This document shows, in pieces, positions 51,931 through 56,610 of a DNA stretch of 64,000 nt (within the stretch, counting starts at the first letter, position 1; each line of letters starts with the position of its first letter). The position numbers and the translations under genes are program-made. This DNA is from Alphaproteobacteria bacterium (lineage in GTDB: Bacteria > Pseudomonadota > Alphaproteobacteria > UBA828), in the NCBI GenBank assembly GCA_965214705.1, contig CBDCCI010000001.1, forward strand, positions 350,887-414,886, written 5' to 3'. Below the pieces are notes generated by a model. The model was not told the origin of the DNA, made no database searches, and saw nothing but the letters and a program-made list of their open reading frames with translations.

Positions 51931-52328
51931 GAGCGTCCCCACTGTTGGTCGGCGCATGCGTGGAACGCTGAATGGAAGGCTAAGTCCCTGATATATTCTC
52001 GTACAGGAAGTCTGACTCCGACGTCGTAAAGCTGGATAGAACCGCTACGAGGGGTCGGCCGAGCAGCTTCCTCAAGAGCAGCGCCATTGTCGCGCAAAGC
52101 TTGGCAACCTGCGCTTTCAGTGCCTCGGTCCAAGCGTTCGACGTCTTCATGGTCTTGCAGAATCGGGCGTATTGCCTCCGCTCTCTCCCAGAACAGCCTT
52201 TCGCACTTTCGCCAACCCCGCAGTATTCGGTTGCCAAAGACGAAGGGGGATCGTCCGACGCTCGTAGCCAGCCCGGCTCGCATGCATTCTTGGACCGAAA
52301 TGGCCGAATATCACTGACCAGGACGCGA

Positions 52329-52745
52329 TTATCGATGTGCGAGCTCTCGAGTACCGAGTTTTCTCAACAGTCGGGCGCGTTTCCTCAGCCACCATCCGGC
52401 TTCGACCGGCCAAGCCTCGTGGTCGTCGTCGGCGGTGAGCTCTCGGGCAGCGTGAAGCGGCCAATTGGGGTCGTCGAGCAGCTCACGCGCGAGCGCCATC
52501 ATATCGGCTTTACCGGCAGCAAGCGCATCCTCGCAGAAACTCGCGTCCCACAAGTAACCCACGGTCATGGTTGGAACGTCCACAGCTTCACGAATGCGAG
52601 CCGCGAAAGGCACCTGAAAGCCCTGTTCGATCGTCATGCGGCGCGGGCGTTCCTTGCCCCCGATGCCGCCGCTCGAGCAGTCGATCATGTCTACGCCTTC
52701 CGCCAGGAGTGCCCTGGCGGTTTCGATCGTATCTCTTGAGTAACT
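52329..52745 (-). pseudogene. C-terminal fragment of an OYE-family NADH:flavin oxidoreductase
   Basis: ...SRDTIETARALLAEGVDMIDCSSGGI...FQVPFAARIREAVDVPTMTVGYL...GKADMMALARELLDDPNWPL, which is the typical OYE/YqjM C-terminal half. There is no N-terminal half upstream, where IS110 abuts. Confidence 0.75.
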
Positions 52746-52750
52746 TCTCT

Positions 52751-54175
52751 CTAAGCCGTTGACATAGAGGCATTTGTGTTTTTGTTGTCGTCGTCGATCT
52801 CGACCAGTTGGAAGCCGAGCTTCTTGGCCTGTCGACGGAGCGAAGAGAACTTTCGGTCCAGGCGTCGGCTCTCGTAGACCTCCATCCCCTTCTCGGCATA
52901 TTGCTGGCCGCGGGTCACCATCAGGTAGATCAGGCAGGCGAGTTCTCGGGCGGTGGCGACAACGGCTACGCTGGTGTCCATCCGGGCGAGGCGGCTGCGG
53001 TGCTTGGCGCCGATGAAGGTTTGGCTGGTGCGAGCGGTCATGGCCGCCATGCGCAGTGCCTGGCCAACGCGGTTGACCACCTTGGGCCCCCGGCCCGGCA
53101 ACGGTTTGCCGCCGCTGATCCTGGTCCCAGGCGCCAGCCCCAGCCAGGAACTGAAGTGCTGTGCGGAGGGAAAGGCGGAGAAGTCAGGACCGATCTCGGC
53201 GGCGATCACCAGGGCAGTGTTGACGCCGACGGTGGGGATTGCGGTGAGATCGACCCCCATCATCTTATGCAGCGCCATAGCCATGGCCTTATCCTGCCCG
53301 CGGAGCGCCCTGCCGCTGCTGCTTGGGGTCTCGTTCGACGCCGTGCCCGATGATCCGACACTGGGAGTGTCCTCGGGCGTACCCTCATCCGTCGGATCGT
53401 CCGGCGGGGTCAGGTGCTCAACCTCCGCCATGATCCGCGCCTCGCAGTCCGCGATCTGCTGCTCCAGAAAGTCGTAGCGCTGCATCGCCTGCTCAAGCGC
53501 GAACAGGTGCTCCTCGCGCCAAGTGCCCTCCAGGCTCGCGGCAATCGTGTCGGCGCTGGCCTTGATCCGCCTGTCGCGAAGCGACGCCAGCCGCCCGGGG
53601 TCGCGCTCGCCGGCGATGATCGCCCGCAGGATGCGCTCACCCGTCTTCCCCATGATATCGCTGATCACCGAGTCCAGACGCACGTTCATCTGGGTCAGCG
53701 CCTTCTGCATATGCAGCACGCAGCGAGAGCGGTCCTCGATCAACTGCTTCGCCTGGCGCATGAAGGAGCGCAACGGGCAGATCGCGTCGCCCGGCCGGAA
53801 GGCGCCGCGCAGAAGGCCGTAGGACATCAGCTGCCAGATCCACTGGCAGTCCAGCACATCGCTCTTGCGCCCGCCGATCTGCTTCGTCATCCGGGGCGGC
53901 ACAAGCATCACCTCGAAGCCGGCTCGATCCAGGACCTCGTAAACCGGGATCCAGTAGACCGAGGTCGACTCCATCGCCACCTTCGTCACACCGCACGACT
54001 TCAGCCACTCGGCCATCGCATCCAGGTCGCGCGTGAACGCGCCGAACTCCCTCACCGGTTCCTCGGCTCGCTCCGGATCCACCGCCACGAAGTGCCGGTC
54101 CTTGCCGATGTCGATCCCGGCGCAATTCGGGTGCACTACCTTGAGGCGCTGCCTCCTTCTCCGCTTGCGCGCCAT
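52751..54175 (-). CDS. IS110-family transposase/recombinase
   Basis: ATG at 54175 seven nt after GGAGG. VVHPNCAGIDIGKDRHFVAV, VAMESTSVYW and SDVLDCQW (DEDD-type N-domain). C-terminal LTAIPTVGVNTALVIAAEIG...FSSWLGLAPGTRISGGK block. Confidence 0.9.
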   Translation of the reverse strand: MARKRRRRQRLKVVHPNCAGIDIGKDRHFVAVDPERAEEPVREFGAFTRDLDAMAEWLKSCGVTKVAMESTSVYWIPVYEVLDRAGFEVMLVPPRMTKQIGGRKSDVLDCQWIWQLMSYGLLRGAFRPGDAICPLRSFMRQAKQLIEDRSRCVLHMQKALTQMNVRLDSVISDIMGKTGERILRAIIAGERDPGRLASLRDRRIKASADTIAASLEGTWREEHLFALEQAMQRYDFLEQQIADCEARIMAEVEHLTPPDDPTDEGTPEDTPSVGSSGTASNETPSSSGRALRGQDKAMAMALHKMMGVDLTAIPTVGVNTALVIAAEIGPDFSAFPSAQHFSSWLGLAPGTRISGGKPLPGRGPKVVNRVGQALRMAAMTARTSQTFIGAKHRSRLARMDTSVAVVATARELACLIYLMVTRGQQYAEKGMEVYESRRLDRKFSSLRRQAKKLGFQLVEIDDDNKNTNASMSTA

Positions 54176-54418
54176 CGAGAGCCCTCCCAAACTCCGTTGA
54201 CGTTGCGGGTGGGGAGGAACCGCGGCGAAGTCTCAATCTCTTGAACGAGGTCACGGGCGAACCCGCGCCATCAGTGACAGAAGCCGATCACGGTTCGGGC
54301 CAAGCTTCCAAACGGGTGCCCTCGCACGCCACTGAAGGGACGGCCTCGTCTGCCCTACCCGCTACCACTTCACGCTTCAACCGTCGAAGACTCAACCCCA
54401 GTCGAAGACTCTACCCCC
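54176..54418 (-). ncRNA. candidate bridge (guide) RNA region in the IS110 5' leader
   Basis: The non-coding leader contains a tandem GAGTCTTCGAC x2 and a CGGG-UUCG-CCCG hairpin. A 9-mer (54236-54244) is identical to the DNA just outside the element's other end (52731-52739). An 8-mer (54194-54201) is identical to the element's 3' end (52756-52763). Function is inferred by analogy with characterised IS110 elements. Confidence 0.3.
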
Positions 54419-54428
54419 AGTTACTTCA

Positions 54429-54514
54429 GCGACTGAGCCGCTGCGCCGCAGTGGTGGTGGCTTCCAACTGGATGCCGCCGTCGAGCCAATCGGTGGCCGA
54501 TAGTCGGAACACCA
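54429..54514 (-). pseudogene. short continuation of the N-terminal OYE fragment (between IS1634 copy 1 and IS110)
   Basis: Reads (PLV)FRLSATDWLDGGIQLEATTTAAQRLSR* when joined to 58117 after removing IS1634, the IS5-like element and one ACCA repeat. Confidence 0.6.
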
Positions 54515-56610
54515 CCCATCTTTGCCACTTTTCGGTCCCGAAGGCCTGATTTTGGGTAGCCTTTGGGATCTAAGGCACTGATTTTGTTGGATTGTGTTTT
54601 GGGAAGTCCATTGTAGTGCCATAATCTTTGGTCTGTGGGCCGGCGCTCCTTGACAGTCCGCAAACTGTCCGTGACCCTGCCGCCATGTTCATTCGCAAAA
54701 CCCTCACCGGTCGCGGAGACGGTGGCGAGCGCTATGCCACCTACCGCCTCGTGCGCAGCGAACGCATCGGCGGAAGGGTGCGCCAGGTCACGCTCCTCAA
54801 TCTCGGCGCCGACTTCGGTGTGCCCGAGGAGCAATGGCGCGAATTGGCGCTTCTGATCGAAACCCTTCTCGCCGGCAGCGAGCCGCTGCTGGAGCCGGAT
54901 GCCGCCTTGCGCCCCGTCGCCGAGGACGTCGTACGGCGGCTTCACGCCCGCGATCTCGGCGCGTCGCGGCCCGGGGACGAGAGCGACCTGGCCACGGTCC
55001 GTCTCGATAGCCTCTCCCACGAACAGGTCCGCTCGGTGGGCTGCGAGCGCCTGGCTCTCGCCGCGCTTGACGACCTTCGCTTCATCGAGACGCTGGAGAG
55101 GCTGGGCGCAAGTGAGCGCGACGCACGCATCGCGGCGGCACTGGTGGTCGCGCGCATGATCCATCCCTCCAGCGAGCGCGAGGCCTTCCGCTGGCTGAGC
55201 GCGAACAGCGCGACCCTGGAGTTGCTCGATGTCGACAGCGGCAAGTCGCTCACGCTCAGCAAGCTCTACCGCATCGGCGACCTCTTGTGGCGTCACCGCG
55301 CGGCGCTTGAAGAGGCGCTGTGCGCCCGGGAGCGCGATCTCTTCGGCATCCCCGACACCATCGTCTTCTTCGACCTGACCAACACCCATATGACCGGACG
55401 GCCCAGCTCCGCGCTGGCCCGCTTCGGGCGCTCGAAGCAGAGGCGTGACGATTGTCCGATCGTGACCCTGGCCCTGTCGCTGAACCAGGCCGGCTTTCCG
55501 CAGCACAGCGAGATCCTGCCCGGCAACATCTCCGAGCCGGCCACTCTCGCCGACGCCATCGGGCGGCTGGAATGCCAAGCGCGCGGCAGCAACGCCCCCA
55601 GGCCCACGGTCATCATGGACGCCGGCATCTCCACCGAGGCCAACCTCGCCTGGCTGCGGGCGGGCGGCTATCACTGGATCACCGTTCGCCGCGGCGTCTC
55701 GGCGCCGCCCGGGCGCGAAGCCGATGCCGCCTTCGAAACCCGGGCCGGCCACGATGCCCGCGCCTGGCGTCTCGCGGCAGGGGACGACGAAGCGCACCTG
55801 TGCGTCTGGAGCCATGAGCGCCAGCAGAAGGACGAGGCCGTGCTCGCCCGTCAGCGTCACAACTTCGAGGACGCCCTGCGCGCCCTGCATGGCGGGCTGT
55901 CGAAGAAGAACCACATCAAGCAGTTCACCAAGGTGATGGAGAAGCTGGGCCGGCTGAAGGAAAGGTACAGGCGCGTCCACCGTCAGTACGACATCGAGGT
56001 CGAGCCCGGAGAGAAGGGGCGGGCCAGTGCGGTCCGCTGGAGGCGCAACGCTCTCCATGCCGAGCGCGACCGCCAAGCGGGCATCTATGTGCTGCGCACC
56101 AGCCACGTCGAGTGGGATCTTGAAACCGTGGTCCGAACCTACTGGAAGCTCACAGAGCTCGAGGCCACCTTCCGCAGCCTGAAATCCGAAATCGGCCTGC
56201 GCCCGGTCTGGCACTCCAAGACCTCGCGCATCGCCGCCCACCTGTTCATCGCCGTCCTCGCCTACCACGCGGTTCATCTGCTGCGAACCCGTCTGGCGGC
56301 GCACGGCTTGCATGACCGCTGGAGTACGATCCGCGACAAGCTCGCGGGCTGGGTGCGTCTCACCTCCACCATCCGGGAGGTGGACGGAAACCGCATCGTC
56401 ATCCGCCAGGATGCTCAACCCGACGCCGAGGCGCGCGTCATCGCGCAGGCGGCGGGCCTCACGGTGGATCCCCACAGGCGCCGGGCCGTGCTCCCGGGAG
56501 TGTCGCGATGAGCGCACAAACGTAGTGCCATAATCCCAGATGGGCCAGAAAATCAGCCCATCATCGCAACTACTTAGGTCGCAGGCGCGCGCCAAAATGG
56601 CAAAGATGGG
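54515..56610 (+). mobile_element. IS1634-family insertion sequence, copy 1 (2,096 bp)
   Basis: Ends CCCATCTTTGCCACTTTT... and ...AAAATGGCAAAGATGGG form an imperfect inverted repeat. 4-bp ACCA direct repeat at 54511-54514 and 58117-58120. Its last base or bases are displaced by the IS5-like insertion. Confidence 0.85.
54685..56511 (+). CDS. IS1634-family (IS4-related DDE) transposase
   Basis: ATG at 54685 (MFIRKTLTGR...). FFDLTNTHMTG, RSKQRRDDCPIVTLALSLNQAGFP, VIMDAGISTEANLAWL, YWKLTELEATFRSLKSEIGLRPVWH. Confidence 0.9.
   Translation: MFIRKTLTGRGDGGERYATYRLVRSERIGGRVRQVTLLNLGADFGVPEEQWRELALLIETLLAGSEPLLEPDAALRPVAEDVVRRLHARDLGASRPGDESDLATVRLDSLSHEQVRSVGCERLALAALDDLRFIETLERLGASERDARIAAALVVARMIHPSSEREAFRWLSANSATLELLDVDSGKSLTLSKLYRIGDLLWRHRAALEEALCARERDLFGIPDTIVFFDLTNTHMTGRPSSALARFGRSKQRRDDCPIVTLALSLNQAGFPQHSEILPGNISEPATLADAIGRLECQARGSNAPRPTVIMDAGISTEANLAWLRAGGYHWITVRRGVSAPPGREADAAFETRAGHDARAWRLAAGDDEAHLCVWSHERQQKDEAVLARQRHNFEDALRALHGGLSKKNHIKQFTKVMEKLGRLKERYRRVHRQYDIEVEPGEKGRASAVRWRRNALHAERDRQAGIYVLRTSHVEWDLETVVRTYWKLTELEATFRSLKSEIGLRPVWHSKTSRIAAHLFIAVLAYHAVHLLRTRLAAHGLHDRWSTIRDKLAGWVRLTSTIREVDGNRIVIRQDAQPDAEARVIAQAAGLTVDPHRRRAVLPGVSR

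Follow-up and report, generated by a model that had tools for sequence, protein, structure and literature searches.

An IS110-family insertion sequence from an alphaproteobacterium whose leader very probably encodes a two-loop bridge guide RNA

The DNA examined here (the window, a stretch of 64,000 nucleotides from contig CBDCCI010000001.1 of an Alphaproteobacteria bacterium of the UBA828 lineage) contains an insertion sequence of the IS110 family, which consists of a recombinase gene preceded by a long non-coding leader; all features of the element given below lie on the minus strand. The recombinase gene (52751..54175) is intact and is predicted to encode a protein of 474 amino acids with a DEDD (RuvC-like) domain and a Tnp domain. 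Screening against Pfam identified PF01548 (N-terminal DEDD, RuvC-like; E = 4.4e-23, residues 19-163) and PF02371 (C-terminal Tnp with the conserved Ser; E = 3.1e-12, residues 310-382), in agreement with the family assignment made in a first-pass annotation from the sequence alone. Distant matches in the PDB were to the IS621 transposase (8wt6, E = 6.5e-10) and the ISCro4 transposase (E = 3.8e-6), and the GID, E and SG motifs of the recombinase align with IS621.

A search of the element's own genome (7.9 Mb, 3 contigs) identified 10 copies, all with an identical recombinase open reading frame (ORF). The segment common to all 10 runs from 54467 to 52733 of the window (1735 bp, essentially 100% identity) and the flanks are otherwise unrelated; element positions are numbered from 54467 (position 1) along the minus strand. 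It was considered that the first 25 nt of the shared segment might be a repeated host sequence, similar to a target of the repetitive extragenic palindromic (REP) type, and this was rejected as these nucleotides occur in the genome only together with the element.

The left flank of one copy (L005) is present a second time in the genome without the element (L098), giving an empty paralogous site. The empty site reads ..GTTCCC-TTGGA-AG-CCCAGTCG.. (TTGGA-AG-CCCAGT) and the filled site reads ..GTTCCC-TTGGA-AG-(CCACCACC...CTCAAG-AG)-CCCAGTCG.. (TTGGA-AG-element-AG-CCCAGT), the difference between them being the element plus one AG. This difference assigns TTGGA to the target, fixes AG as the core and delimits the mobile unit to 54460..52733 (1728 bp including one AG core, with the body CCACCACC...TTACTCAAG followed by AG). 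The left target half TTGGA (54463..54467) is target-derived and lies outside the element, the core AG stands at the left junction (54461..54462) and at the right junction (52733..52734), and AG was found at both junctions in related types as well (in all of them at the left junction). No further empty site was found in 30 related genomes searched with two left flanks. The leader, or left end (54176..54460), is 285 nt long and non-coding, while the right end, from the stop codon to the core, measures 16 nt. The first-pass annotation had set the boundaries too deep inside the element, by approximately 40 nt at one end and 7 nt at the other, with a leader of 243 nt, and these values are replaced by those obtained from the copies and the empty site. 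The near-identical 9-mers that it had located at the junctions (AGTTACTTC and AGTAACTTC) do exist, at a distance of 36 nt and 5 nt inside the ends, where they belong to sub-terminal inverted repeats.

The copy in the window interrupts a gene for an OYE-family flavin oxidoreductase, and TTGGAAG joined to the right flank restores its reading frame (..GGIQ-LED-TIETARALL..). The element has both recombinase domains, and neither terminal inverted repeats nor a target duplication beyond the 2-bp core was found in the 10 copies, as is expected of the IS110 family; the long 285-nt left end with the RNA region and the short 16-nt right end correspond to the layout of the IS110 group and not to that of the IS1111 group. 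The element is an intact, recently active and autonomous insertion sequence of the IS110 group.

Relatives were collected by a scan of one genome per species, which gave 78 loci with 54-94% protein identity, mostly from alphaproteobacterial metagenome-assembled genomes (MAGs), with in addition a gamma-proteobacterial and Pseudomonas group. The ends of several types could be fixed because their genomes hold many copies. From the leaders a set of 35 representative types was chosen and aligned; 29 of these are complete.

Four helices were identified in the leader with RNAalifold and inspection, and together they form a predicted bridge-RNA core (54217..54345, element positions 123-251) of two modules, each composed of a stem, an internal loop and a hairpin with guides on both sides of the loop. 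Bridge RNAs have the same architecture according to Durrant et al. (PMC11208160). Over the 29 types 97.8% of the helix cells are paired, 11 of 27 pairs (62 cells) have changed on both sides, and compensatory changes are present in all four helices. The covariation score was 0.29 compared to 0.16 in shuffled alignments, with none of 500 shuffles reaching the observed value, and controls in which the partner strand was slid gave only 35-44% pairing. The two-loop structure is conserved across the types, as the first-pass annotation had anticipated.

The first module, which would bind the target, is closed by helix P1, in which the 5' strand GGCC (54342..54345, positions 123-126) pairs with the 3' strand GGCC (54298..54301, positions 167-170); relatives carry the compensated pairs GACC/GGUC and GAUC/GAUC. 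Its inner hairpin is Pa (54313..54331, positions 137-155). The second module, which would bind the donor, is closed by P4, in which GAACCGUG (54289..54296, positions 172-179) pairs with CGCGGUUC (54217..54224, positions 244-251); five of its eight pairs have changed on both sides, and the sequences that form P4 in the alpha-proteobacterial relatives are entirely different from those in the gamma-proteobacterial ones. The inner hairpin of this module, Pb (54246..54273, positions 195-222), contains the CGGG-UUCG-CCCG hairpin already recognised in the first-pass annotation (54265..54254) and shows compensatory changes of the kinds G-C/A-U and A-U/U-A. Pairs of the G.U type are kept in the helices: one P4 pair is G-U in 13 cases, and Pa and Pb are each closed by a U.G pair that does not vary. 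A further pairing, CAGUG with CACUG (positions 134-138 with 192-196), was rejected, as it would cross P1 and its middle pair is without covariation.

The strongest match between leader and target had been missed in the first-pass annotation. On the 3' side of the target loop the leader reads UUGGA+AG (54305..54311, positions 157-163), which is the left target half plus the core, and because it is in the same sense as the left flank and core it pairs with the bottom strand. The segment at this place is the type's own left-flank 5-mer in 25 of the 29 types, among 18-20 distinct 5-mers (permuted mean 1.8 matches, with none of 10000 permutations reaching 25), and the identity per column to the left flank is 0.90-0.97. 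Left-flank 5-mers matched type by type include CTTGA, CCCAT, TTACC, GCAGG, TCTGG, ATGAC, TCATG, CTGCA, TGTTA, CTAGG, GTAGG, GAGGG and GTGGG. One of the four exceptions is a copy in a head-to-tail tandem, and in the host copy L006 the left flank reads TTAGAAG, so that one pair with the bottom strand becomes a G.T wobble.

On the 5' side of the same loop stands UCCCUU (54340..54335) followed by a C that faces the core G (together 54334..54340). Across types this is a hypervariable 6-mer complementary to the right flank, in which 64 of 108 cells are paired (permuted mean 44, with 0 of 5000 permutations reaching the observed value), and the register is fixed, with position 133 pairing with flank +1 and position 132 with flank +2. 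The signal for this right-half target guide is weak.

The donor loop carries on its 3' side UCAAG+AG (54238..54244, positions 224-230), in the same sense as the right end plus core. Across types this right-end guide tracks six right-end 5-mers (TCAAG, TCGAG, TCGGG, ATGAG, ATGAA and ATAAG). Of the compared cells 138 are Watson-Crick pairs and two are G.T wobbles, and mismatches are absent; the wobbles fit a pairing of the same-sense guide with the bottom DNA strand. It was this segment that the first-pass annotation had reported as a 9-mer, ATCTCTTGA, shared by 54236-54244 and 52731-52739 and taken to match the target just outside the other end. Both strings are present, and only the last two bases (AT) are flank; these are absent from the other nine copies and are chance bases, while the seven bases TCAAGAG are the right end of the element plus core. 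The 9-mer is accordingly a donor match, the target guides being those at 54311..54305 and 54340..54335. An 8-mer, CCGTTGAC, which the same annotation had found at 54194-54201 and 52756-52763 and had assigned to the donor, is likewise present at both places; a parallel change was seen only in the closest relative (L016), the match is absent from most types, and the donor assignment is unsupported. On the 5' side of the donor loop the segment before the conserved CAC was considered as a left-end guide and discarded, with no consistent pairing or covariation, and GGCU (positions 183-186) was discarded as it is not conserved. The best left-end column signals are isolated ones, of position 232 or 187 with left-end base +3.

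The element therefore has defined boundaries and a defined core, and its leader has a conserved structure of RNA type with three guides that covary with the flanks and the right end; in homologues that insert at other targets the leader segments have changed accordingly. On this comparative evidence it is very probable that the leader of the element encodes a two-loop bridge guide RNA, and the alignments support in substance the guide-RNA interpretation of the first-pass annotation, whose individual observations were confirmed in part.

Several results weigh against this conclusion. An Rfam scan of 52000-55000 (E up to 10) returned chance hits only and no family match, and in a single-sequence fold the whole leader was no better than shuffles (z = +1.37). 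The tests of column pairing and covariation in the related types did not find a left-end guide. Searches of the integrated copy and of the modelled circle junction (best 7/12 at the junction) gave no sigma-70-like promoter, though host promoters may differ. The RNA evidence for the leader consists of metatranscriptome contigs of relatives with 90-95% identity (sponge, marine), one of which extends from the start of the ORF through the leader as far as 54402; these contigs are uninformative on transcription, strand and ends. The ten copies in the host genome have no conserved right flank, and occupied right flanks pair at 3.0 of 6 positions with the 5'-side guide compared to 2.5 of 6 at 323 free sites (P = 0.14, n = 10). 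Finally, the related types are phylogenetically non-independent, and the permutation figures consequently overstate significance.

The use of targets in the host bears on how much of the guide RNA matters in practice. TTGGAAG occurs 342 times in the genome on both strands, 9 of these being occupied, 10 being guide-coding sites inside copies and 323 being free, and the tenth copy lies at TTAGAAG. The ten insertion sites share these 7 nt only, are otherwise unrelated and include one inside a gene. With ten sites as the basis, only the 7-nt anchor is visibly used in the host genome, a pattern which fits the mismatch tolerance reported for ISPpu10. We give roughly even chances to the reading that the bridge RNA is real and its 5'-side target guide is effectively unused in this host, so that TTGGA+AG alone directs the spread, with far less site specificity than in the REP-targeting relatives. 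Besides the shared heptamer, this reading draws on the right flanks, which score like free sites, on the finding that no free genomic TTGGAAG site pairs fully with the 5'-side guide, on the copy within the OYE-family gene, and on the equivalent ISPpu10 guide, which tolerates mismatches at several positions. Against it, no more than 9-10 of the approximately 333 anchor sites carry a copy and another factor may add to site choice, the 5'-side guide does pair with the right flank family-wide, and ten copies provide little test power.

The guide segments might instead act as single-stranded leader DNA, as do the sub-terminal guides of IS200/IS605 elements, and the covariation and the wobble pattern would be alike for an RNA guide and for a DNA strand of the same sense. 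This is very improbable, however, as the guides of IS621 and ISPpu10 are RNAs bound by the recombinase (PMC11208160, PMC11208158, bioRxiv 10.64898/2026.03.19.712850), the recombinase here is homologous to those enzymes, and pairs of the G.U type are kept inside the helices. Also very improbable is an ordinary 5' untranslated region of control hairpins and recombinase-binding DNA, with matches due to chance or to shared protein motifs and no guide RNA, for although the leader is no more stable than shuffles, contains a hairpin that sequesters the ribosome-binding site, lacks a promoter in the searches made and could hold a single 7-mer match in 285 nt with a chance of about 2% (own estimate), chance can produce neither a type's own left-flank 5-mer at the same loop position in 25 of 29 types nor a right-end guide that follows six end variants, the right-end mismatches and the L006 left flank are one-strand G.T wobbles (a signature of nucleic acid and not of a protein site), and the helices carry compensatory changes.

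A bridge guide RNA encoded in the leader makes the element a new member of a known RNA-guided system, with a polarity like that of ISPpu10, and not a new mechanism. ISPpu10 is an IS110-group element of Pseudomonas putida whose bridge RNA also appears in Durrant et al. 2024 (PMC11208160, Extended Data Fig. 10). Its guides pair with the reverse strands and its core is CT forward and AG reverse; a rigid 5-position guide adjoins the core, a 6-position guide is tolerant of mismatches, and the donor site is 11 bp (4+CT+5) (bioRxiv 10.64898/2026.03.19.712850). Compared by description, the present element is alike in that its RNA region is part of the left end and precedes the recombinase gene, in its two internal loops, in a core of AG when read with the recombinase gene and of CT when read against it, in a rigid 5-nt guide beside the core with a tolerant 6-nt guide across the same loop, and in a short donor site. 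Unlike ISPpu10 it lies outside REP sequences or other repeats, its ten sites sharing 7 nt only, and it has no recognisable promoter at the circle junction. The relatives from gamma-proteobacteria (54-60% protein identity) do insert into Pseudomonas REP palindromes.

The same-sense guides of the element are on the 3' side and its core is AG in the direction of the recombinase gene. On the complementary strand this core becomes CT and the 5' and 3' guides take the roles of the canonical left and right target guides (LTG and RTG), from which it follows that the genes for the RNA and the recombinase have the reverse orientation compared to IS621; this flipped polarity has been reported for ISPpu10 and was found here. 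IS621 and ISCro4 (PDB 8wt6, 9t56; PMC11208160, PMC11208158) share with the element a DEDD and Ser recombinase, a two-loop RNA in the left end, a core dinucleotide within the guides, and the lack of terminal inverted repeats and of duplication beyond the core. They differ in their opposite polarity relative to the core and in their guides, which are 8-9 nt and 4-7 nt compared to 7 nt and about 4 to 6 nt here, and the IS621 protein is distant (328 amino acids compared to 474 here). Elements of the IS1111 group, with their seekRNA or bridge RNA in the right end, belong to the same recombinase family and have sub-terminal inverted repeats of at least 7 bp, whereas in the present element the RNA region precedes the gene, within a left end of 285 nt, and only 16 nt make up the right end. 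The sub-terminal inverted repeat of the element is approximately 6-7 bp, with the left copy 36 nt inside the end, compared to 2-3 bp in the IS110 group.

From the analogy with IS621 and ISPpu10 we infer the action of the leader as an RNA, the circle intermediate and the chemistry. By homology with these two systems, the element would excise as a circle joining ...TCAAG-AG-CCACC..., and the leader RNA would fold into its two modules of stem, internal loop and hairpin. The UUGGA+AG guide would serve as a rigid 7-nt anchor on the target, and the DEDD/Ser recombinase would exchange strands at the AG core, inserting the element without duplication beyond the core. A more far-reaching proposal, which we regard as rather unlikely, is that of a relaxed bridge system with a 7-nt anchor and a second guide that is almost unused, which would have spread to approximately 3% of anchor sites, among them sites inside genes. 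In such a system the DNA encoding the anchor guide would itself be a target site, and for that reason copies would enter one another's guide genes and build up tandems, which might lead to copy-number control or to a swap of guides, and the covarying inverted repeat may join the ends across a folded spacer.

A pattern of natural retargeting was observed in the form of insertions into guide-coding DNA, tandems and two other guide variants in the same genome. One of these variants belongs to another member of the family (L011, G000:C3:1733818-1734679), in which the anchor guide UGUUA+AG equals its own left flank GCTGTTA-AG, and the other to a 5'-truncated member (L012, G000:C2:567088-567453) with the anchor guide AGAGG+AG.

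Among the ten copies one is rearranged (L010/L013, G000:C3:1872736-1874606). Its positions 1-164, ending exactly at the anchor-guide TTGGAAG(C), are joined to position 26/28 onward via an AG(C) overlap, with the result that approximately 136 bp of the leader are duplicated; from its sequence this looks like recombination of the guide-coding pseudo-target with an internal ..GCGC-AG-CGG.. site. In relatives, copies were found inserted in the guide-coding DNA of other copies, with the right end and AG joined directly to ..TGGCCCGAACC.. (L019 at about 3936, L033 and L048 at about 2335, and the right flank of L059). One long-read MAG (L041-L058, OZ253557.1) contains many full-length copies arranged as perfect head-to-tail tandems, joined in the order right end-AG-left end. 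The right junctions of L063, L064 and L067, and also of L015, L028 and L031, have one, two or three AG units at what is seemingly the same kind of target (..GCTGTCGG..), and the variable AG count suggests that the core slips or that strands are exchanged there repeatedly.

For the use of RNA-guided recombinases in genome engineering the element provides a well-resolved natural example, with ends known exactly, an empty site, ten live copies and approximately 29 related types that carry different guides, and with a recombinase only distantly similar to IS621. The family alignment can serve as a series of natural reprogramming events for two 5-nt guides, the anchor guide and the right-end guide, and the apparent one-sided specificity in this host, together with the insertions into guide DNA, bears on off-target and half-site behaviour. 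With regard to annotation, the element ends are corrected and two disruptions of the OYE-family gene region are explained. Positions 54468-54560 and 52329-52732, on either side of the element, are fragments of one OYE-family (Oxidored_FMN) gene, which is also cut further upstream by an IS1634-type element.

The sub-terminal inverted repeats consist of AGTAACT (54419..54425), which lies 36 nt inside the left end and pairs with 52739-52745, and AGTTACT (52739..52745), which directly adjoins the 5-nt right-end guide site; they stay complementary in relatives (GTTAC/GTAAC, GTTTG/CAAAC, GTTTC/GAAAC and GTTCC/GGAAC). The 5' leader also contains an 18-nt tandem duplication (54382..54417) which holds two copies of GAGTCTTCGAC (54411..54401 and 54393..54383), the tandem noted in the first-pass annotation; relatives have one unit and the duplication is private to this lineage. 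Near the recombinase gene a centroid fold predicts a hairpin over the ribosome-binding site (54182..54217), in which CCUCCC (54217..54212) pairs with GGGAGG (54188..54183); the motif is conserved in relatives and probably serves in translational control.

In the loop of this hairpin stands the 8-mer discussed above, GTCAACGG (54201..54194), which occurs again in the last codons of the ORF (52763..52756). L016 carries GTCAATGG at both sites (C to T), wider relatives are without a match, and the agreement may be due to chance. Two members of the Pseudomonas group (L075, L076) have an extra 85-100 nt, approximately, in the 5' leader just after the left inverted repeat, and this insert ends in a long GC-rich hairpin (GGCGGCTG..CAGCCGCC). 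The sponge metatranscriptome contigs (runs X15 and X16) differ from the window at several places in the leader and among these in both target guides, at 54307, 54310 and 54311 and at 54335-54339.

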